Of a DNA stretch of 64,000 bases, positions 14,458 to 52,321 are shown one piece after another (positions within the stretch are counted from its first letter, which is position 1; every line of letters starts with the position of its first letter). The translations under genes were made by a program, and so were the position numbers. The notes under the pieces were generated by a model. That model worked only from the letters and a program-made list of their open reading frames with translations. It did no database searches and had not been told where the DNA came from. Origin of the DNA: a virus. Taxonomy: Duplodnaviria; Caudoviricetes. The stretch lies in the IMG/VR virus record IMGVR_UViG_3300027819_000006, one strand, 5' to 3'.

Positions 14458-16197
14458 TTATACACTTGAGGGTGAACCTAAAAATCCGAGATCCGACACT
14501 GTAACTGTCCCATAATAGTCTGCTCTGACCATGGCTAGAGCCGATCTTTGCATAACGCCTTTCCGTGGAGTAAAGTCATTTGGCTCGAATATTGTCGGTG
14601 TAACAATTAACGGTACATAGGGTGCATATACGAATCCTGCATCTAGTGCTCCCGAACCCTTATACCCTAACAGAATCTTATTGACTGGGAAATAAGGATC
14701 TTTGTATACAGTAAATCTATTTACAAGTGTTCCAACTTTCTCAATACCAAGACTATATTGAACCTCTGAAGGGTCAAATGTAGCATTTGGTTTGAATGTA
14801 GCAATGCTTTCAATAATTGAGCAGACATCTGGAGATGTTACCATCCAGTTTGCACCTGATCTCATATTTCTCTTGTGGATCTCATTGCTTACAGTTGTAA
14901 CAGTTTCGCCTAATGTTTGATACCATTCTTGCTGAGTTCCGAAGAATGCTTGATAGGTGAATGATGTATTTGCAGAACCAGCAGGAATTACTGTAGAAAC
15001 TACATCATTAGCATTCCATTTTACATATCTACCGATAACTCTTGACCATGCAGCTCTTACTGCGGCACCTGAAAGTAGCATTGCAAGAATATTTCTGTCT
15101 ATTTCTGTGGTGATTACTTCAGATAGAATTGTTGTCAATTCTACTTCTGCATCAAGAGCATGATAGGCATTTAGATCTTGTGCTAGTTCAGGAGTCCAGA
15201 TAGCTTTTAGTTTTCTTGTCTCAGCATTTACAGCAATTGAAGAAACTGATATATTGATTTCTGGAATTGCAGATGTTGATTCAAAATCACCTAAACTATT
15301 TGAGCCAGAGTCTACTGACACAACAGTTCTTCCTGGACCAACTATTACTCCTGCAGTTACTGAACCGTCAGACCATGATTTGTCTGGTCCTGGCCAGTTT
15401 GCATTAGGTCTCTTTAAGAATACTTGGATTAGAGCTCCTGTTAGTACAGTCATTGTATGATCCATGTCTCCGAAGAAAGATCCACCTGTTAGTGAGTGCA
15501 GAGCTCTTAGAGTTCTGAATGTTTTTGTACCATCTTCATTTAGCTCACCAGATGCAGCACCTCTGATTTCCATAAGAGAACCAATATCTGTTGCAGCTGA
15601 AGAAGCTAGTGTAAAGTTATAGCCTGAAACAGTTACAGAACCTAACATTTCTGAAGTAGCTGTTACACCAGAGTATGTAGGAGCTGCTGTAGATAGAAGA
15701 AACATTCTTTTTGAATAACCAGTTTGCATGTTGTAGAATCCACCGGATGCGTTCTGTTCACCTACGGCATGTAACTGTGCATTATTATTTGGAGGACCAT
15801 TTTCAAAGTTACCATAGACAGATCCACCACCAGTGAATCCTGCTCTTGTACGATCAAATTTGAAATCAAGATAGAAAATCAAACCTGATGGCAAGCTCAT
15901 CGGTTGTACAGATACTAGTTCGTTGGCTAATAGCTGTCCGAATACTCTTCTTACTAGTGGGAATGCAATCTTTTGAAAGTTTGCGATATCTCCAACTTGC
16001 GAAGCAGATTCGTTCATGGTTCTTCTTAGTTCAATTGCTTGGTTTTCAAGCAATCTTGCCATAATAGGAACTTTGTTGTCAGGTAGCTTTTTTAGCAGTC
16101 CTGTTCTTGACCATTTGGCAACGAGTCTTTTTGCTTCCTCGTTCATGTTTCTTTCATGATGGTCTCTAGTCATTTCTAGAATAAGTTTGTCGTTCAT
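14458..16197 (-). CDS. Major capsid protein (T4 gp23-like)
   Basis: LVSVQPMSLPSGLIFYLDF, ETRKLKAIWTPELAQDLNAYHALDAEVEL and AGFVYAPYVPL...FTPRKGVMQR. Confidence 0.95.
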   Translation of the reverse strand: MNDKLILEMTRDHHERNMNEEAKRLVAKWSRTGLLKKLPDNKVPIMARLLENQAIELRRTMNESASQVGDIANFQKIAFPLVRRVFGQLLANELVSVQPMSLPSGLIFYLDFKFDRTRAGFTGGGSVYGNFENGPPNNNAQLHAVGEQNASGGFYNMQTGYSKRMFLLSTAAPTYSGVTATSEMLGSVTVSGYNFTLASSAATDIGSLMEIRGAASGELNEDGTKTFRTLRALHSLTGGSFFGDMDHTMTVLTGALIQVFLKRPNANWPGPDKSWSDGSVTAGVIVGPGRTVVSVDSGSNSLGDFESTSAIPEINISVSSIAVNAETRKLKAIWTPELAQDLNAYHALDAEVELTTILSEVITTEIDRNILAMLLSGAAVRAAWSRVIGRYVKWNANDVVSTVIPAGSANTSFTYQAFFGTQQEWYQTLGETVTTVSNEIHKRNMRSGANWMVTSPDVCSIIESIATFKPNATFDPSEVQYSLGIEKVGTLVNRFTVYKDPYFPVNKILLGYKGSGALDAGFVYAPYVPLIVTPTIFEPNDFTPRKGVMQRSALAMVRADYYGTVTVSDLGFLGSPSSV

Positions 16198-27888: not shown

Positions 27889-30800
27889 TTATAATTTAAT
27901 TTCTGTTGATGCTGCTAAAATTTGTTTCACTGCCATTGGACCATCAGTACCCTCATATTCATCTACAGACTTACTACCATCAGCATTCTCAGCATTTGCA
28001 AAGTCTTTCAAACCCTCAATAATATTTTTAGTGAATCTATCATGTTGCATTACATCAGTGATATAGCGGTCAAATACATCAGTCTTCTTTCTATTCTTAA
28101 TTATATCTCTTGCTTTTGCTCTTTTTCTAGATATTATTTCTGAGTTAGAAGTTTTTGCTTTTGACAATCCTACATTAGATTCTTTCTTTTTGCCTACAGA
28201 TCTAACACCTGGAGTTCCTTTTGTACCAGCAGGATCAGCAACTTTCATTGGATTCTTGTCTGTATCTGTGAATGTTTCTCCGTCCTTCTTTTTAGGCTTG
28301 CCTCTAGTAGATTCTTTGTCAGAATCTTCATCTTCAGTAGGTTTTTCTTTATTTTCATCTGAAAAATCTGGCATGTCTGAATCTGCAGATTCTCCATCTT
28401 TCCCTTCAGCACCAGAATCATCAGCAGGTTCTTCTGTCTGCTCTTCTTCTTCTAGTTTGCCATTCTGTTCAATCTGTCCAAGCTCCCATTTCTTCTTAGC
28501 GTCAAGTCTTAACTGCTCATTGATCTCTTCGATTTCATCATCTGTTAGACCAAGTACATGTTTCTGTGTATAAGGTTCGGAAACAAGATGAGAATCACCC
28601 ATTCTAGTAGATATATCAAATCTCTTCTCTACTAGTTCAAGATGCATAAGATCCATCACAGTAGAGGGGTTGGTCAGTTTAAGCTCGAAGTTATAAATAT
28701 CATCTTCATCAAAACCTTTTAAAAATAGATGGATTAGACCAATTTTAGATAGTTCAGATATAACAGCTTTTTGTACACGCTGAATTGTGCGAGCGAATCT
28801 AATGTCTTCTTGAGAATTTGCGATAAAAATTCCAGCATCTATAGCAAAATTATGGAATTCATTATCAACAGTTATACATCCAACATCTACAGTATAGGGC
28901 AATAACTTTACTATTTTAATTTTCCAACTAGATAATTCATATGTTTCAAAATTTATTGGATTAAAATCTATAAATCCTTTTACTGGTTCTGATAAATCAT
29001 AATCTTCTAATTTTATTTTTTTACCTTCAAAAGTAACTAACTCGTGATTTTTAGTACAATCTAAATATTTACCATTTTCGAAGTGAACTCTATATATAGT
29101 AGCATTTCTTTGAGTAATACCTGCCCATTTTATTAGGGATGAAATAATTCTATTTTTATTAGAATCATAAGATATAATTGTATCTTTTAATTCATTTTTA
29201 TTGAATAAGTCAATAATTTCTTTTAGGGTTTTAGTTTTACTATGAGCTAAAACAATTTTAGTATTTAAATCTATACATAGAGTCTGCTTGCCACCTAAAG
29301 ATTCCATATTTTGAAGATAAGCTTTAGGTACTCCGAGCGAAGTAAAGAGCTGGTTCTGGATAAACTCGACATCCGCAATCGCGTCTTGATTTGTCCCTCC
29401 TGGAAGTTGTTCTATAGAAGAACCTCTATCTCCACGAATTGGGATGTAGAAATTTTCTAGAATGGAATTCTTAATTATTATTCCGCTTTCATTTCCAGTA
29501 ATATGTTCATAACAATCTCTACTACCTATAGTTGCAAAATTTCCATATTTTTCTACTGTTATACAACCTACATCTTGTTTTTCTTCTAATAATTCAATTC
29601 TGGTTACTTTGTGATTTAATATTCTATTACCTCTTATAGTATCTATATTACAATCAGTTTTTATTTTAAGAAACTCCGGATATTTATGAGATAGAGTTTT
29701 TATTAATAATTTTATAGTTGTATTATTCAAATCAAATTTTCTTTCAATTTGTCGAAAAGTTATAATATCTTTTTTACTACAATAATTAACTATTTTATTT
29801 ATATCTATTTTATTTTTTAAGAGCCAAATAGATTTGTATTCTGTAAATCCAGAATATCCTAAAGTTTTAAATAGACTACTAAATCTTCCTCTACCCAATT
29901 TATCTTTAAAACCATTATTGAATGTAATATTTTTATCTATTAAATAATTTGTAAAATCTTTGTTTTCATTTATCTGTTTCATAGCTTCATGAGCTTTTAT
30001 ATTAACAGTAGAATTATCTAATATAGTATCAATAAATTTTATAAATATATTTTCATCTATAACTAATGACAGCAATTCACTTACATTTTTATAGTGTTTA
30101 TTTTTTTTATCTTTGTCATTCCAGTGATTAGTAAAATGATATAATTTTCCTTCTTTCCAACTTTTTGTCATTCTATTTTTAGAATTTTCTCTACCAATCT
30201 CTGATTTATTATATTCTAAAATTGCATCACCATGAAGTTTTTGATGATCGTGCCAACTCATTACTTGCAGATTGTCTGGATTATTGTTTCTTTTATTATT
30301 TTTGTCTTTTAGAAAATTTTTGTGATGAACAACTGCTCTTCTATTTTTTTCTACTTTGCAATAGTCATCTTGAAATAGTTTACCAGCAACAATTTTATGT
30401 GTATAATCAAATGCATTTGTATTTGGGTCATAAATCATTTCATATCCATTTGTAGATAAATTTTTATATAATGGCATCAAACTATCATTCTCTTTTAAGT
30501 GTTGAGCTTCAATATATTCTCCGATTCTTAATAAAAACTTATGATCTAAAGTTGTATCTATGTAAGTATTATTGTCTAAATGAATACGTATTATTTGCTC
30601 ATTTTTTCTTGTCATTTTAGCATTTATTACTCTTCCTGGAACTATAGCATTATTGTTTTCTCTATCTATCGAATAAACCCATTGATTTTTTTTGCCATTA
30701 TTTCTTTCATTTATTATTTCTTCTAAAGTAAGAGTTCTTCCATCTAATAATTGAACTAAGTTGTTTGCCAGTATACAAGTTGGATTGTATCTCATATCTA

Positions 30801-31617
30801 ACCCTCCAGTACTTTCTGTCACTAGCGGTGTCCTTAACATTTTGTCTCTTACATTGTTCATGTAAGAATCCACATCTTTTGGAGGAATATTTCCAACATC
30901 AACTTTAAACACTAATCTTTCTGGAGCTCTCGATATCCTATAAATTAACATTGCATCAATTGCAAGTATTAGCTGCTTCCAAGCTCTTCTACCAGAATCA
31001 AGAATTGATCTACCATAGGGCAAAAACCTGTCATCTCCAAGAAGTCTAAAATGAGCAATTTGATAAGGCTCGAATGCTTGGTTTGACTGAGTCATCCATC
31101 TAAATCTAACAGATGCAGGATCACCATCGTAGCCTTCTTCTCTCGACATTTCCAACAATGGTAAAGGAATGGCTCCTAAAACTCCATATTTATTTTCTAT
31201 ATCTAATAATGTAAAAACGTCTCCATATTTTACGAGGTTCCTGACCCACAACCATAAGTTAAAATCTATATCTAGTATGTCAAAGTATAATTCTTCTAAA
31301 GTCTTAACTATAGTTTCTTCTTCCGATCTAATATCTAGTATTTTACCTTCATAATTATATGTGGTCGAATCATCCGCATAAATATTACAAGCCGTACTAA
31401 TCTCTGGACTCTGATCCATCTGTTCATAGTCTCTTACTCTTTCAGTTCTTTCAGCTCCACCAGCCAATGCTTGCAAATACAGAGAACTAGCCGATTTTTG
31501 GAAACTGTCATACGGGCGTCTTCCACCCGCACGATTTGCAGGAGAGTCAGTTGGAATTTTTTCTGAAGCTCTCCTCCCGCGAAGTATGCGCTTGAGCAAG
31601 CTGATCTTATCGGCCAT
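27889..31617 (-). CDS. Portal protein (T4 gp20-like) with two inteins
   Basis: IAHFRL...PYGRSIL, DAMLIYRISRAPERLVFKVDVGNIP, ENFYIPIRG and EDIRFARTIQR. Confidence 0.93.
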   Translation of the reverse strand: MADKISLLKRILRGRRASEKIPTDSPANRAGGRRPYDSFQKSASSLYLQALAGGAERTERVRDYEQMDQSPEISTACNIYADDSTTYNYEGKILDIRSEEETIVKTLEELYFDILDIDFNLWLWVRNLVKYGDVFTLLDIENKYGVLGAIPLPLLEMSREEGYDGDPASVRFRWMTQSNQAFEPYQIAHFRLLGDDRFLPYGRSILDSGRRAWKQLILAIDAMLIYRISRAPERLVFKVDVGNIPPKDVDSYMNNVRDKMLRTPLVTESTGGLDMRYNPTCILANNLVQLLDGRTLTLEEIINERNNGKKNQWVYSIDRENNNAIVPGRVINAKMTRKNEQIIRIHLDNNTYIDTTLDHKFLLRIGEYIEAQHLKENDSLMPLYKNLSTNGYEMIYDPNTNAFDYTHKIVAGKLFQDDYCKVEKNRRAVVHHKNFLKDKNNKRNNNPDNLQVMSWHDHQKLHGDAILEYNKSEIGRENSKNRMTKSWKEGKLYHFTNHWNDKDKKNKHYKNVSELLSLVIDENIFIKFIDTILDNSTVNIKAHEAMKQINENKDFTNYLIDKNITFNNGFKDKLGRGRFSSLFKTLGYSGFTEYKSIWLLKNKIDINKIVNYCSKKDIITFRQIERKFDLNNTTIKLLIKTLSHKYPEFLKIKTDCNIDTIRGNRILNHKVTRIELLEEKQDVGCITVEKYGNFATIGSRDCYEHITGNESGIIIKNSILENFYIPIRGDRGSSIEQLPGGTNQDAIADVEFIQNQLFTSLGVPKAYLQNMESLGGKQTLCIDLNTKIVLAHSKTKTLKEIIDLFNKNELKDTIISYDSNKNRIISSLIKWAGITQRNATIYRVHFENGKYLDCTKNHELVTFEGKKIKLEDYDLSEPVKGFIDFNPINFETYELSSWKIKIVKLLPYTVDVGCITVDNEFHNFAIDAGIFIANSQEDIRFARTIQRVQKAVISELSKIGLIHLFLKGFDEDDIYNFELKLTNPSTVMDLMHLELVEKRFDISTRMGDSHLVSEPYTQKHVLGLTDDEIEEINEQLRLDAKKKWELGQIEQNGKLEEEEQTEEPADDSGAEGKDGESADSDMPDFSDENKEKPTEDEDSDKESTRGKPKKKDGETFTDTDKNPMKVADPAGTKGTPGVRSVGKKKESNVGLSKAKTSNSEIISRKRAKARDIIKNRKKTDVFDRYITDVMQHDRFTKNIIEGLKDFANAENADGSKSVDEYEGTDGPMAVKQILAASTEIKL
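28816..29277 (-). mobile_element. Intein 2, mini-intein (154 aa)
   Basis: KQTL|CIDLNTKI ... CTKNHEL ... HNFAIDAGIFIAN|SQED. Confidence 0.9.
29467..30777 (-). mobile_element. Intein 1 (437 aa) with an HNH endonuclease domain
   Basis: YNPT|CILANNLVQLLDG ... IIIKN|SILE; internal VVHHKN...NNNPDNLQVMSWHDHQKLH. Confidence 0.9.
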
Positions 31618-32304: not shown

Positions 32305-33954
32305 TTACAAAAGCCATCTAAATTCATTTATTGTATCTATTGCGCTTTTATGTTGCAATGGAACTTTTCTTATTACACCAGTATTTGCATCTTTTATTTC
32401 ATGTTCTGTGCTCATTACAGAAGCGAAAGATTTAGATTCTTGTCTAAAACTATTTACTAGAGTATGTTGCATTTCTATTGAATTATTGAATTTGACTCCA
32501 GCATTTCTAGCATACATTCCAATTCCCAGCGACATGACTAAATCGTCATGAGCATCTTCAGATGCCTGTGGTTTGCCATATAGCATGATAAATGTTTTTA
32601 GTTCTTCTAATACTCTGTTAGAGTGCAATATAATTTCTTTATTTCTTATATCTTCTTGCATTTTTGCGATCATTACTGGTCTAGTCTTGCCACTTGTAGT
32701 GAAACCAGCAACAGCATTTTTAGAATATATGTCAATAAATTCTTCATCAGTATTCATGTTGACTACAGATAAAGAATCTCTTCTTTTAGAATAGTATACA
32801 TTAGGATATTCAGCTTGTATAATATCTTCTAATACTCCAAGACCGTAGCTATTATTTTCTACTACTAATGTTGCTTCATTATATTCTCTACCTACTTCTA
32901 TTAACATTTGAGCAAATAGTTCTGGTACAATTTTGCCTTTATATTCTGCTACTTGTTCATATTCTTCTAATTCTATTACGTGAAAAGCTGAAAAATCTGA
33001 AGAATCTCCTTTAGCAACGTCTGCAGATATTGTATATTGTTTGCCAAACTCTGGATCTTTCCAAACCCATAGATGGTTGTCTATTCCTTTTTTGTATAGT
33101 GGGTCTCTGATATATAGTTGGCCTTCACAGAAAGGGTCAAATGATTCTTTGTACCATATTAATGATTTTGGATCAAAAACAGAATTGCCAGACATCAAGA
33201 AATCTGCATCTTGCTCTTGTGCGAAGGCTTGCTCACCGATCTTCGCCTTCATTTCATCAGCCCAAGCTTGATTTCTATCTGGATGATTTTTCCAAGATAA
33301 TCTTATTGGATTGAAAAATTGCAATTTATTTCCTATTTGAGTTTGTATTCCAGATTCTGCTTCTATATATTGATTATAAAACCAACCATTAGCTCCATTT
33401 GGAGTAGACAATATAATACAATCTCCACCAGTAGATAATGTTGGTTGAGCAGATGTCCAAATGGTACGAAAATTTTTTACAAATGCGCACTCGTCTACTA
33501 CTAAAAGACTCAAAGCTTCAGATCTTGCTGCGTCTTTTGTGGTAGAAGAAGCTTGAGCTTTTGATCCATTAGCTAATGCAACAGATTGTACATTTTTTGT
33601 TTTTTGTTCTGGCTTTAACCATTCTGGTAGTTCTTCTAAAAATACCTTTATCTTTGATACAAGATTTGTTGCAACAGATGATTTAGTTGCTACTATATAT
33701 ACTTCTTTGTTAGCAAAAAAGGTTATTAACCAAGCAATATATCCTGCCACTAAAGTAGATATTCCTAATTGTCTACCTTTAAGTATTATATTATATGAAT
33801 GCTCAACAAATGCATTGATACATTCTTTCTGAAAATCCCAGAGAGCAAAGTCAATTAATCCTTTTGTGGGATGGCGCACTTTTCCATAATTTTCAAGAAA
33901 ATAGATGGGATTTTCTCGACATTTTATGTATTCTTCTAATTCTGAATTGTTCAT
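32305..33954 (-). CDS. terL: Terminase large subunit
   Basis: KGRQLGISTL Walker A, LLVVDECAF Walker B, LSTPNG, ISADVAKG and HDDLVMS nuclease motifs. Confidence 0.95.
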   Translation of the reverse strand: MNNSELEEYIKCRENPIYFLENYGKVRHPTKGLIDFALWDFQKECINAFVEHSYNIILKGRQLGISTLVAGYIAWLITFFANKEVYIVATKSSVATNLVSKIKVFLEELPEWLKPEQKTKNVQSVALANGSKAQASSTTKDAARSEALSLLVVDECAFVKNFRTIWTSAQPTLSTGGDCIILSTPNGANGWFYNQYIEAESGIQTQIGNKLQFFNPIRLSWKNHPDRNQAWADEMKAKIGEQAFAQEQDADFLMSGNSVFDPKSLIWYKESFDPFCEGQLYIRDPLYKKGIDNHLWVWKDPEFGKQYTISADVAKGDSSDFSAFHVIELEEYEQVAEYKGKIVPELFAQMLIEVGREYNEATLVVENNSYGLGVLEDIIQAEYPNVYYSKRRDSLSVVNMNTDEEFIDIYSKNAVAGFTTSGKTRPVMIAKMQEDIRNKEIILHSNRVLEELKTFIMLYGKPQASEDAHDDLVMSLGIGMYARNAGVKFNNSIEMQHTLVNSFRQESKSFASVMSTEHEIKDANTGVIRKVPLQHKSAIDTINEFRWLL

Positions 33955-34024
33955 AGAATATTCACTTCTTACATAATATAAATATAATTTGCAAAACAAA
34001 AAAGTACAATATCAGAAAACACAA

Positions 34025-39537: not shown

Positions 39538-39882
39538 TGGTGGACCTGGAGAATATCGAAATTCTCGTGTAGTCTATGCTACATAAAAATTGTATTGTAC
39601 ATGCTTTTGCAAATTCTAATTTTTCATTCTGTTATAAAGAATTAGCAAAGTTTATAACAGAATTATTCTTTCTATTTATTAAAAGAAGTGTTCTTATCAG
39701 ATATGAATGATGCTATTCTATTTCCTATCTGCAAAATTTAGATAGCATAGCTGTTTAGCTCTTAAGCAGCTAGTTTGTATTGATTTTTGTCAATTACTAT
39801 TTTGCTGTAAGTTTAAAGAGTTTATAGCAAACTCTGCATGCAATTCTTACTTTACATACCTATCGATTCCAATTTCAGGCCC
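39538..39882 (-). ncRNA. ssrA: tmRNA (complete, 345 nt), tag (A)DKNQYKLAA
   Basis: 5' GGGCCTG pairs with 3' CAGGTCC-ACCA including G3.U70; T-arm GAGAA-TTTCGAT-ATTCTC; tag ORF 39762-39791. Confidence 0.93.
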
Positions 39883-47637: not shown

Positions 47638-47703
47638 TAAAAAGATGCTTCCCATATAAAATAAATATATAAGAAACATCACTTTAAAACATCTGTCTAA
47701 CAA

Positions 47704-50700
47704 CTAAACAATCTTGAAACCATCTACAGAATATCTAGAAATTCTATTAACCTCTTCTTCTTCATGTTTCTCCATCTGATTCAAATAGAAAGCAAATCTC
47801 TCTTCTATATGCTCGTTCAAATCGTAAACTTTATCAGAATAAACTTTCAAATCTGCTGCTTTCTTCTTTGATTCTTCAAAATTCTCGACATGTTTAGATA
47901 TAGCATCTGTCCACACTTTAGGAGCTGTAACACTTACTGCCATGTTTTCAAATCTTAGTTTATCGGGAACAGTTTTCCAGAAGTCATGATAACCTCCATA
48001 ATTGCTGAATACTGGGACTGCTCCATAATACAAAGATTCTATCAGCTTTATCTCTGATTTGCACTCGCTAAATGTATTATGTTCTACATATGCCAAAGAT
48101 ATATCAAACAGAGTATAGAATTTAGCATATTCTTCTAGAGGCAGAGCATCAAAAATTTTTATTCTCTTTGGATCAATACCTGAATATAGTTTCTCTACTC
48201 TGTTTCTATAAGTCAAGCTCTTGTCTTGCAATTCCATTTCTCTGAATTTAGCCTGACCATTCTCGTCATATTGTATTTCTACTTGTGAATCTTTCAATGC
48301 CATACCAGCAAGCACAAATACAGTCTGTGGATATCTGTCATGTATGACTTTTAGAATGGAATACATTTTTCTCAGATCTTCAAAATGACTTGTAAGACCT
48401 GCCCAGCCAATAACAATTTTATTGTCAGTTGAAGGAAACCATTCTGGTAACATTTGCTGTCTAGTATCAGAAATATTTAAATTCCATTGTGGCAGTTGCC
48501 AGTCAAACATATTTCTGATTATATGCACATTCTTATTGAAATTTCCAAATGTTTTACATAGTTTCTCAGTAGTAGTTGTAATAGCATGACTCTTGCTTAG
48601 AGAGTGAATGCTCATTTGATCTTTTTTGCTTGCATCAATTATGTTGCGATGATATCGATTCCATATCATCTCTTATGGTCACCCATAAGTTCAGACTATT
48701 TCTTGTGCTATATTCAAAAGCACCTCTCTGTTTCAGCTTCTCTTGAAGCTTACATTATATAGTCGTTGCACTATCTGTGTTTCAAATATTCAGCTATTAT
48801 GCTGATTACTGCAATAAGAGATATTACAGATAAAGCATATATTAAAATATACTTTCCAAATAGCTCAGAGTTTTCTCAGTGAGATTTTCTCTGAATTAAG
48901 AGAGTTTTTATTATGTGAAGCAATTTAATACCACACATCACGCATCAATTATGTTATCTTAGAAGTTCTTTATCTTCTAATTCTGATAATTTTATTCTTA
49001 TCAGTTCGGACTATATCATCAGTATTGAAATACTGTCTCTTTTTCTTGGATATTTCTATCTAGTCTCTGAACCTTCTATTTTATCAATAGTTTAGCTGCT
49101 GATTAGCATTTCAGCTTTCCAGCAATTTAAGAGATTTTTCATTGAATTATTCAATGCCCCAATTTTTATTCAGGGTGCGTTCTTGGTAAGTTGAATTCAT
49201 TATCTATTTATTTGTTAACTGCAATTTCTTTTATTATAGTTGCAGATCGGACTATTTCATCTAGTTCTATGTCTAGTCTCTGAACCTTCTATTTATATAG
49301 CTTGGCTGCAGATTGTCTCTGTCTGAGATATCCCTGCAATTTATAGAATTTATTGTGGACAATATTTGAATTCTAAAAACTTAATCCACATCATGACAGA
49401 CCCAAGCAGATTTCTCTGTCTTCGGCCACATGTTTACTGCTGATAAAAAATGTGAATGTAAATTTCCACATCTGTGCATTATTATTCCATCTGCTAATTT
49501 GAGATGATTCGGTTGTCATTTATGTTGCGGAATTTATTCGCAATAAGCTGCTGAAAATAATATGCATGGTTTCTTAACTTTTATATTGATTTCTTCGAAG
49601 CTATAATCTCTAAAAGTATGAAAATTAAATTCATCTTCATTTCCAAAAGATCTTTTTAGTGTTGCTTTAGCCTCTTCTAAATCTTTTGCTGCTATAAAAA
49701 TTATACTAAGTGAATAACCTTTACATGCTTTTACTTTAAAATATTTCATAATAAATTCCTCTACAATTTTTTATATTGTTGTAGTTCGGACTATCACATG
49801 ATCTTATAATATACTAAGCTGCTACCATTCAATTTTACCAGATTTACGAACTAATTTGTTGCCATATAGAGTAACTACTAATACATCTTCTAATACTTTA
49901 TATGTTCTTTGTGCAGCGTTTGATTTAAATAATTTCTTAACAGAAGCTGCTTGTTTCTTAGTCATATATCTGTAATTCACCATAAGACCTCCAAGGTTTA
50001 GTCTCTTCTACTGCATTTTCATGCTTGTAGTTTGTTAGCTTTAATTATGTTTCTAATTTGTTTTTTGTCTAATTTATCAGAAGATATTACGCATCCAAAA
50101 TCGCTAGTATTTTTAGTGTCAGGATGTTGATAAATGTGTAATCCAAATTTGTATTTTAAAACATGTTCTAATATCTCTATGTAGCTCATTGGACCTCCTG
50201 CAATTATTTCTTGATTCATAGTCAAAGCCTTTCAATTTAATTACTTAAGATTCTCATTTCTATATTGCTATAGAATGATCCACATTGTCTAGATTTTCAG
50301 TATAAACTAAATTTATCTCATCTCTAAAATTCTTCCACAGTACTCTCATCGGTTCAAAGATTCTGAAATATGCTTTCATGTTAGCTACAATTTTTGATAT
50401 AGTTGTAGTTCGGACTATCATATGATCTTTATGCTTTACCAAGTCTCAGGATCATTTCTATAAAAGTGTACAAATGCTAAAAATATTATAATACATCCTA
50501 GTGGTAAAATTAAACATTTTAGATCTCCAATCGTTTAGTCTCTCAAGCTGCAAAATTGTTTATAAAGCTTCCTGTCTTGATTAAAATATACTTTTTCTAT
50601 TGAAAGCTCTACTAAATTATAAATATATGCACACTTTCTATTATCTTTGGGACATCCTGGATCTTCTGCTTCTAAATATATAAGAGGAGAATATTTATCT

Positions 50701-51309
50701 CTATATATTTTAGCAATTTTATAATCCCAACTTTTGAGCTGTCTTACCTGAACTTCAACCCAAAAAGGCATGTACCTATAGTTCATCATGTTTTGCTTGC
50801 TCCTTGTTGTCTGATTTCTATGATCAGATATTCAAGTGATTAGATTAGATTCTCATTCTATATTATTAGAATGACACCATTTAAAATGTTCCAGTTTCTG
50901 CTTTATGTTAATCTCTAATTTTTTGTATAGTTAGAGTTCGGACTATCATATGATCTTTACAGATTATTAAAATCAAAACCTTCTCCTTTATAATTCTCTG
51001 TACAATATGTCGCAACGAATATTAAAAGAAAAATTATTATTCCGCCCATAAAAATCTCCAATCGTTTAGTCTCTCAAGCTGTATTTAAACTTGTTCCTTG
51101 TTGTCTGAATTTTATTCAGATATTCAAGTGATTAGATTAGATTTTCATTCTATTGCTTATAGAATGCCGCCAGAATTTAACGGAGTGCTAAAAACGATAC
51201 AGCGCTTAGATCGATCGATGCTAGATGGATTAGTGAACATTTGTTTCAACTTGTTTCTTTCTTCAGCATTTTTATAGTTCAAATGCTCTTCTACATTTTC
51301 TTCTGTAAT
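47704..51309 (-). CDS. GT-B glycosyltransferase (GT4-like), 446 aa after splicing out six group I introns
   Basis: Exons 51309-51180, 50900-50886, 50372-50291, 49516-49384, 49204-49172, 48945-48930 and 48635-47704 join to 1341 nt in frame: RCIVFSTPSETGTSYFRIFEP...HDVDDNEFNLPRTHPMRDVWYASKK...VIGWAGLTSHFEDL...FSECKSEIKLIE. AUU start after AAGGAG. Confidence 0.88.
48636..48929 (-). mobile_element. Group I intron F (294 nt)
   Basis: AATTCAGAGAAA, AACTCTGAGC, GTGCAACGACTA and GAAATAGTCTG; P9 hairpins; end GCAACATAATTG. Confidence 0.87.
48946..49171 (-). mobile_element. Group I intron E (226 nt)
   Basis: AATTGCTGGAAA, AATCAGCAG, GTTCAGAGACTA and GATATAGTCCG; end AACATAATTG. Confidence 0.9.
49205..49383 (-). 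mobile_element. Group I intron D (179 nt, non-canonical 3' junction)
   Basis: P1 GUGGAU/GUCCAC, AATTGCAGGGA, AATCTGCAG, GTTCAGAGACTA and GAAATAGTCCG. Confidence 0.85.
49534..49749 (-). CDS. 71-aa hypothetical ORF in the P9 region of intron C
   Basis: GAGG RBS overlapping the P9 stem; MKYFKVKACKGYS. Confidence 0.65.
   Translation of the reverse strand: MKYFKVKACKGYSLSIIFIAAKDLEEAKATLKRSFGNEDEFNFHTFRDYSFEEINIKVKKPCILFSAAYCE
49822..49983 (-). CDS. 53-aa hypothetical ORF in the P8 loop of intron C
   Basis: GGAGG RBS; MVNYRYMTKKQAASVKK...GKIEW*. Confidence 0.65.
   Translation of the reverse strand: MVNYRYMTKKQAASVKKLFKSNAAQRTYKVLEDVLVVTLYGNKLVRKSGKIEW
50019..50189 (-). CDS. 56-aa hypothetical ORF in intron C (upstream of R)
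   Basis: GGAGG RBS before MSYIEILEH. Confidence 0.6.
   Translation of the reverse strand: MSYIEILEHVLKYKFGLHIYQHPDTKNTSDFGCVISSDKLDKKQIRNIIKANKLQA
50373..50885 (-). mobile_element. Group I intron B (513 nt)
   Basis: P1 ACAU/GUGU; core nearly identical to intron A; terminal G before CATATTTC. Confidence 0.88.
50535..50789 (-). CDS. 84-aa hypothetical ORF inside intron B
   Basis: AAGGAG RBS; its stop codon lies within the R element; no endonuclease motif. Confidence 0.7.
   Translation of the reverse strand: MMNYRYMPFWVEVQVRQLKSWDYKIAKIYRDKYSPLIYLEAEDPGCPKDNRKCAYIYNLVELSIEKVYFNQDRKLYKQFCSLRD
50901..51179 (-). mobile_element. Group I intron A (279 nt)
   Basis: P1 CCGU/GCGG, P10 UUCUG/CAGAA, R CTTGAGAGACTA, S ATGATAGTCCG, terminal G. 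Confidence 0.88.
50957..51049 (-). CDS. 30-aa hydrophobic peptide in the P8 loop of intron A
   Basis: GGAG RBS; MGGIIIFLLIFVATYCTENYKGEGFDFNNL*. Confidence 0.5.
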   Translation of the reverse strand: MGGIIIFLLIFVATYCTENYKGEGFDFNNL

Positions 51310-51357
51310 GTTAGTTCTCCTTATTTAAATGTTTAACATCTATTTATTTTATAAAAC

Positions 51358-51393
51358 AAAAACAAAGCAATTTAAACTGCTTTGTTTTTTGCT
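51358..51393. terminator. Hairpin with flanking A/T runs, possible bidirectional terminator
   Basis: AAAAACAAAGCA...TGCTTTGTTTTT. Confidence 0.55.
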
Positions 51394-51448: not shown

Positions 51449-52321
51449 CTATTTAACTTCTACTTCTACTTTATCTACTGGTTTTGGAATTTCATCTGTA
51501 AATTCTGTGATTGAAATAGAATCTAAATCTACTCTGCACTTACCTTGCAGAATCAGTTTCAATTTTGTTGCAGATTCTCCACACAGCATTCTACAATCAT
51601 TACCAAATTGTACATATAGAAAATCATTATTTACGTGAGCATTTGTAATCTTGTTTAAGTCTAATATAGAATCATTGACTTTAACAAAATAAGGTTTAGC
51701 ATTATCGACCAATATCTTCAATTCATCTACTACTCTATTAAAATCTTTATTCTGTGATTTAATATCTATGTTTTGTTTAATGATAGTCTCATCTAGCTGC
51801 TGATTAACTGATTTCTGATTTTTGAGTTCTAATTTTATCTTTTCTAATTCTTCTTTCAACTGTTTTACATCTTCTTTCTTTTTACCCAACATTTGTAAGT
51901 TCCTTTTTAAACAATATTAACTGTTTTATTTAGTAGTTCTTTTTAATTTATTAGCAATTGCTCCGTAATATTTTTCAGCAATACCATTAACTAATATAAT
52001 TTCTATATTCTCTTCATCTAATACTTTATTTGATTTCACTGTGCATATTTTATTTAAATCTATTGTATTGTCTTCTACTGACACGAAATGGTTCTCATTC
52101 TTACAAGTTATTAATTTCAATTCATCTATCACAGCATATAATGCATCAAATTCTTTTTTAGATAACTCTTTTTCTTTTAACCTATTCTGTAATTCTTTTA
52201 TAATGTCAGATTGTATTGCAAATAGACTATTCACACGCTTCAGTTCTTTTTCGATACTTAACAGATCTTCTTTTAATATTTCGATTTCTTCGTTCTTGTC
52301 GCTTTGTCGCATAAACAGCAT
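51449..52321 (-). other. Two tandem paralogous coiled-coil proteins (51449-51892, 51926-52321)
   Basis: Shared FVxVxDxxxDLNKI C-terminal motif. Confidence 0.7.

Follow-up and report, generated by a model that had tools for sequence, protein, structure and literature searches.

A groundwater phage glycosyltransferase gene interrupted by six predicted group I introns

The stretch of DNA analysed here (IMG/VR record IMGVR_UViG_3300027819_000006; 64,000 nt, hereafter the window) comes from an uncultured, tailed jumbo phage of groundwater and harbors, on the minus strand between positions 51309 and 47704, a glycosyltransferase (GT) gene interrupted by six inserts. Judged from their sequence, all six inserts are group I introns, and the locus very probably represents a single transcription unit, that is, a GT-B glycosyltransferase gene with a self-spliced pre-mRNA, whose organization would be the product of repeated intron invasion. 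The seven exons sum to 1341 nt and encode a protein of 446 aa; the introns, named A to F, account for 2265 of the 3606 nt (Table 1) and all fall within the first 409 coding bases, about one intron per 68 coding bases. In the scenario that we propose, the pre-mRNA would splice itself with guanosine, the seven exons being ligated before or during translation. Introns A, B, C, E, and F have canonical U...G ends; intron D has a canonical 5' site only.

Structure of the gene and nature of the inserts

The exons were located by reading the minus strand and by mapping four full-length homologs on it with tblastn, which returned five colinear blocks and two short gaps lying exactly at the predicted micro-exons. 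An earlier reading of this DNA, carried out on the sequence alone, had proposed these exon and intron lengths; the structure that we rebuilt agrees with it exactly, the joined frame is open over 446 codons, and every family motif that it quoted is present. The alignment of the spliced product with twelve intron-less homologs (443-451 aa) contains no indel in the first 200 residues, i.e., the proteins are colinear over the intron-bearing N-terminal region. When 30 full-length homologs were aligned, the junctions lay in or beside the invariant residues S44, T46/G47/T48/S49, D120/D121, H130/M132, and W136.

Table 1. Position of the features of the glycosyltransferase (GT) locus and of other genes in the window (ORF, open reading frame).
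Feature	Position	Strand	Remarks
Shine-Dalgarno AAGGAGA	51316..51322	minus	6 nt before the ATT start
Exon 1	51180..51309	minus	130 nt; ends ...STP + U
Intron A	50901..51179	minus	279 nt; P1 CCGU/GCGG, P10 CAGAA/UUCUG; ends in G
Intron A, P8-loop ORF	51049-50957	minus	30 aa, strongly hydrophobic
Exon 2 (micro-exon)	50886..50900	minus	15 nt, CAGAAACUGGAACAU; completes S, then ETGT and the first base of S
Intron B	50373..50885	minus	513 nt; P1 ACAU/GUGU; ends in G
Intron B, P6-loop ORF	50535..50789	minus	84 aa (MMNYRYM...), AAGGAG upstream; no family match
Intron B, P8-loop short ORF	50497-50438 (approximate)	minus	19 aa
Exon 3	50291..50372	minus	82 nt; SYFRIFEP...YTEN + CU
Intron C	49517..50290	minus	774 nt; P1 AUCU/GGAU, P10 ACA/UGU; ends in G; three peripheral-loop ORFs
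Intron C, P5/P6-region ORF	50019..50225	minus	66-68 aa
Intron C, P8-loop ORF	49822..49983	minus	53 aa (MVNYRYM...); GGAGG 5 nt upstream
Intron C, terminal-hairpin ORF	49534..49749	minus	71 aa; 10-bp stem GGAAUUUAUU/AAUAAAUUCC
Exon 4	49384..49516	minus	133 nt; A + QPNH...CHDVD
Intron D	49205..49383	minus	179 nt; no ORF, almost no P8; P1 UGUGGAU/GUCCACA, P10 GAUA/UAUU
Exon 5	49172..49204	minus	33 nt; DNEFNLPRTHP
Intron E	48946..49171	minus	226 nt; P1 CCCU/GGGG; ends in G
Exon 6 (micro-exon)	48930..48945	minus	16 nt, AUGCGUGAUGUGUGGU; MRDVW + U; same 16-nt exon in relative L036
Intron F	48636..48929	minus	294 nt; P1 AUGUG(U)GGU/GCU(U)CACAU; ends in G
Exon 7	47704..48635	minus	932 nt, stop codon included; from residue 137 to the C-terminal end
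Terminator-like hairpin	51358..51389	minus	closes the upstream gene; upstream limit of the GT transcription unit
Terminator-like hairpin	47644..47680	minus	directly past the GT stop codon
Major head protein	14458-16197		marks a tailed phage
Portal	27889-31617	minus	marks a tailed phage
Large terminase	32305-33999		marks a tailed phage
tmRNA gene	39538-39882	minus	RF00023, 56.7 bits; the phage's own

The protein, which is also encoded on a 272-kb contig, belongs to a family matching phrog_7162 'glycosyltransferase' (E 2.7e-18), for which no Pfam match, no PDB sequence match, and no relative among 50,697 records of cultured phages were retrieved. The AlphaFold model of the homolog P0004 (62% identical to the C-terminal ORF of the window) has a pLDDT of 91, and Foldseek matched it to MshA, GlgM, BshA, and TreT with E values of 1e-10 to 1e-13. 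According to this model, the protein is a GT-B (GT4-like) glycosyltransferase with two Rossmann domains; it resembles the GT4 enzymes acting on small molecules and glycans, and nothing in the data points to DNA as an acceptor. The idea of the sequence-only reading that splicing could gate the timing of DNA or virion glycosylation is thus a speculative one.

As for the inserts, a search of both strands of the window for R and S core elements in good context (AGAGACTA or AACGACTA followed by ATAGTCC or ATAGTCT) gave six pairs, all of them inside the GT gene on the minus strand, where the sequence-only reading had placed them. The P1 helix with a U.G pair at the last exon base, also part of that reading, was verified by script in all six introns (3-7 contiguous bp). 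The contiguous P10 pairs counted in the same way are five in A, three in B, three in C, four in D, and one each in E and F. The predicted AAC(N6-9) tails are present as well; introns A, B, C, E, and F end in G, and intron D ends in frame at A49205, so that the expected intron end holds for five of the six.

A scan of the whole window with Rfam in default mode, at the gathering thresholds, retrieved the tmRNA only and no intron, as one would expect if the inserts were not introns at all and the exons were pseudogene fragments with other mobile DNA or assembly artefacts between them. The same Rfam family, RF00028, run with relaxed filters, nevertheless gave 61.8 bits for intron E, the gathering score being 50, and 38.5 bits (E 2e-7) for intron F; on short stretches it gave 49.6 bits for intron D and 16.7 bits for intron A, the latter over the 5' half only. 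RF00028 also misses a clean 283-nt relative of the A/B/C type. Since this type escapes Rfam, a separate covariance model (R1) was built from 28 compact IMG/VR introns chosen by the S-element pattern TGYGAYAGTCCGAACT, with no sequence from this gene family among them; RNAalifold recovered P3, P4, P6, and P8 from their alignment, with compensatory changes in 19 of the 22 pairs. R1 matched all six inserts: A with 56.1 bits (E 2e-13), D with 36.1, C with 30.1 and 24.4, E with 28.4, B with 22.8 and 14.5, and F with 17.2 bits. In the 128 kb represented by both strands of the window it found these six introns only, the next best match scoring 10.4 bits (E 0.45). R1 also matches the inserts of relatives and found no match in six intron-less relative loci. 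Infernal-type searches with group I models thus recover introns D, E, and F with Rfam and all six with R1. When introns A and E were compared with phage records by blastn, the matches obtained were all short, unannotated, and in Staphylococcus phages.

The junctions, moreover, are base-exact with their U.G pairs, and an independent 78-kb Logan contig is identical over the GT region. With these data and the model scores, the view that the inserts are something other than introns is hardly credible. The colinear homologs, the Rfam and R1 scores, and the fold match bear out the central proposal of the sequence-only reading, namely a GT-B gene split by six group I introns with micro-exons of 15 and 16 nt. 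Furthermore, no terminator-like hairpin lies inside the GT gene and those seen flank it on both sides; a distribution of hairpins outside the gene only is consistent with a single transcript.

Some data weigh against the proposal of a spliced and functional gene. Rfam misses introns B and C and barely scores A, and the P10 of introns E and F amounts to just 1 bp. The aligned start codon is ATT (51309) where the homologs have ATG, the next in-frame start being TTG at 51282. The run search retrieved the locus from groundwater and sediment DNA runs only, and no joined (intron-less) form occurs in the contigs of these runs. Lastly, at the in-frame junction the last base of intron D is A49205, and exon 5 begins with G49204. 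At 18x depth, the Logan contigs match the window exactly, with no variants or indel at intron D.

The 3' junction of intron D

The P1 helix of intron D sets the 5' splice site after U49384, and its P10, together with the invariant DD motif (HDVD|DNEF), sets the 3' junction between A49205 and G49204. A terminal G is considered universal among group I introns; it is found in the other five introns of the gene, in all five introns of the related locus L036, and in the intron of the related locus L342 that occupies the same site as D. Because it is absent at the in-frame junction, intron D is only a candidate for productive splicing. The sequence-only reading, which put forward a 446-aa product with intact motifs, overlooked this missing G; the open frame and the motifs stand.

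One possible explanation is that the introns are real and that no full enzyme is made: intron D would splice at the sole nearby G (49204), one exon base would be lost, the frame would shift past codon 120, and the gene would be either recently dead or leaky. Joining the canonical U.G site to G49204 would give GAU|AUAAUG, a -1 frameshift, and P7 of intron D keeps an unaltered G-binding pair, in line with the terminal G regarded as universal and kept by the L036 introns and by the same-site L342 intron. The ATT start codon fits a dead gene too. The related locus L077 points in the same direction: it carries two junctions lacking a terminal G, which suggests that decay occurs in the family. On the other hand, the seven exons are otherwise open and keep all the invariant residues in a genome of 30% G+C, where stops arise easily, and both P1 and P10 set the D junction exactly at A|G. 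One of the two L077 junctions, moreover, belongs to a related intron inserted 3 nt upstream of the D site, with the same A|GAU junction and the tail length of the canonical L342 intron. Judging from its sequence, L077 may itself be decaying. On balance, we consider a dead or leaky gene a serious possibility, though not the probable state of the locus.

The L077 junction bears also on a further, rather unlikely idea, according to which intron D and, independently, its L077 relative would ligate after A, the 3' site being picked by a P10 stacked directly on P1; the two would then represent a natural lineage tolerating a non-G end. The second L077 junction without a terminal G is that of its A-site intron (L077:1835-2063), which ends ...GGUGAC|CAGAAAC, the in-frame junction following C; here a perfect 6-bp P10 (CAGAAA/UUUCUG) abuts P1, and the contig coverage is only ~4x.

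Alternatively, the cuts at intron D might follow U49383, one base later on the 5' side, and G49204. The resulting exon lengths of 134 and 32 would keep the frame, with the replacement D121Y, and L077 can be read likewise (GUUG|...UAG|AU). The pair at the cleavage site would, however, be U.U, and D121 is invariant in all 30 homologs, which makes this solution very improbable. For intron D we also considered the skipping of exon 5, the use of cryptic G sites, and a shift of the 5' site; none of them yields the conserved protein.

Intron-borne ORFs, related loci, and genomic context

The 15-nt exon had been taken to imply ordered splicing, serving both the P10 of intron A and the P1 of intron B. 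This does not hold: the former uses nt 1-5 of the exon and the latter nt 12-15, and since they do not overlap, the two pairings can coexist and no order is forced. By analogy with phage Twort (see below), exon skipping would be the more relevant risk; the lengths of exons 2 and 5 are multiples of three, so that skipping either keeps the frame.

Introns A and B share 91-100% identity in three core segments and differ in their guide sequences and P8 inserts. This combination indicates that B arose recently by duplication of A and, through a changed guide sequence, was retargeted to a site 15 nt downstream.

The introns had been described as endonuclease-free. This is true in that none of their ORFs matches a known endonuclease family; nonetheless, four ORFs with Shine-Dalgarno sites (84, 66-68, 53, and 71 aa) are present in introns B and C, and for them neither a Pfam nor a PHROG match nor a likeness to known endonucleases was found. 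In our scenario these small loop ORFs would be passengers. The 71-aa ORF of intron C is 39% identical to an ORF inside an L077 intron; a search of 1.8 billion representative proteins retrieved just two relatives of it, and no informative neighbour was obtained from the Atlas. For the P8-loop ORFs of introns A, B, and C (30, 19, and 53 aa, respectively), the Shine-Dalgarno sequence coincides with the 3' strand of P3 (GAUUGGAG or CUUGGAGG).

The GT gene is uninterrupted in about 98 of the 114 related loci, and the remainder carry one to five introns. L036 has five, all with U...G ends, and shares the 16-nt micro-exon, its product of 441 aa being intact; L342 has at least three introns, L077 three, L001/L035 two, and L088 and L026 one each. 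Considering the window and its relatives, ten distinct insertion sites are occupied, after coding nt 130, 138, 145, 227, 234, 357, 360, 363, 393, and 409, all within 140 codons. An ORF in an L001 intron matches the homing-endonuclease family phrog_3339; it is similar to the large ORFs in introns of L036 and L088, which are also similar to one another. Such a mosaic is what repeated homing into conserved codons, with later loss of the endonuclease, would be expected to leave. Mobile introns targeting the invariant codons of the GT gene would have invaded it repeatedly, and the endonuclease genes would have been lost from the introns of this phage or would never have been present in these copies.

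Two of these relatives carry further ORFs. The L036 gene (L036:562-4737, Ga0180008_1007113; 62% amino-acid identity) has one intron holding two ORFs (90 and 74 aa) and another with a 363-aa endonuclease-like ORF. In L342, the P8 region of an intron contains an ORF of 59 aa (L342:378-557) with two CxxC pairs (zinc-ribbon-like).

Concerning the surroundings of the gene, a four-codon mini-ORF (ATG TTA AAC ATT TAA; 51338-51324, minus strand) stands directly before the ribosome-binding site and the ATT start. The two genes directly upstream (51449-51892 and 51926-52321, minus strand) code for paralog-like proteins of 147 and 131 aa, which have a ...V.V.D..IDLNKI... motif in common and N-terminal parts of coiled-coil-like character. 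The portal ORF is 1242 aa long; the portal profile matches it in four separate stretches and an HNH endonuclease matches residues 388-475, a pattern suggestive of an intein or of an endonuclease inserted in frame.

Comparison with other intron-bearing genes

The td, nrdB, and nrdD introns of phage T4 and their homing-endonuclease life cycle offer one close parallel: conserved codons are targeted, and endonuclease-less derivatives exist. The GT gene resembles them in its conserved-codon targets and in the endonuclease ORFs placed in peripheral loops of the relatives' introns. It differs from them in that its six introns hold no recognisable endonuclease and have small ORFs in its place.

Another close parallel is orf142 of Staphylococcus phage Twort, with three group I introns and exon skipping (Landthaler and Shub 1999, as cited in PMC11878797). 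In both cases several group I introns sit in one phage protein gene, with a spacing so close that exon skipping is a risk; here the introns are six rather than three, the exons include two of 15 and 16 nt, the host gene is a different one, and the case is known from sequence alone. Genes of the Bastillevirinae contain up to three introns each (PMC11878797). In the crAss-like Zeta group, one major capsid protein gene is in five fragments and a genome can harbor up to 14 introns (PMC7886860), and Jug phages have a mean of 18.5 introns per genome, about half of the predicted ones being backed by junction reads in three genomes with metatranscriptomes (PMC12880540). The GT gene shares with these groups a pattern in which short group I introns, some with endonuclease ORFs and others lacking them, cut essential or conserved phage genes and are missed by gene callers. 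In those phages the interrupted genes are polymerase, terminase, capsid, and nrd genes with no more than three to four inserts per gene, whereas here a glycosyltransferase carries six within 409 coding bases and comes from groundwater instead of the gut. Many more introns are found in fungal mitochondrial cox1, e.g., that of Agaricus bisporus (PMC2987802), which likewise combines many group I introns in one gene, some very short exons, and a presence that varies between relatives; cox1 is, however, organellar and its splicing largely protein-dependent, and the GT gene belongs to a bacterial virus.

The literature search retrieved no report of a phage glycosyltransferase with introns and, in the literature searched, no phage gene whose group I introns exceed three or four in number, so that the six described here would be the densest case. 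The gene is an extreme example of a known mechanism and not a new mechanism. It would imply that intron hot-spots can extend to accessory genes with no role in replication. Together with its relatives it offers a natural series, from zero to six introns at ten sites, which includes a recent, retargeted duplicate (A/B), versions with and without endonucleases, and possibly an intron without a terminal G; such a series would represent a compact system for studying the spread of introns to new sites and their decay. Finally, the structure of this gene was missed by standard gene callers and by the default Rfam scan, which suggests that fragmentation of this kind hides proteins in viral metagenomes.

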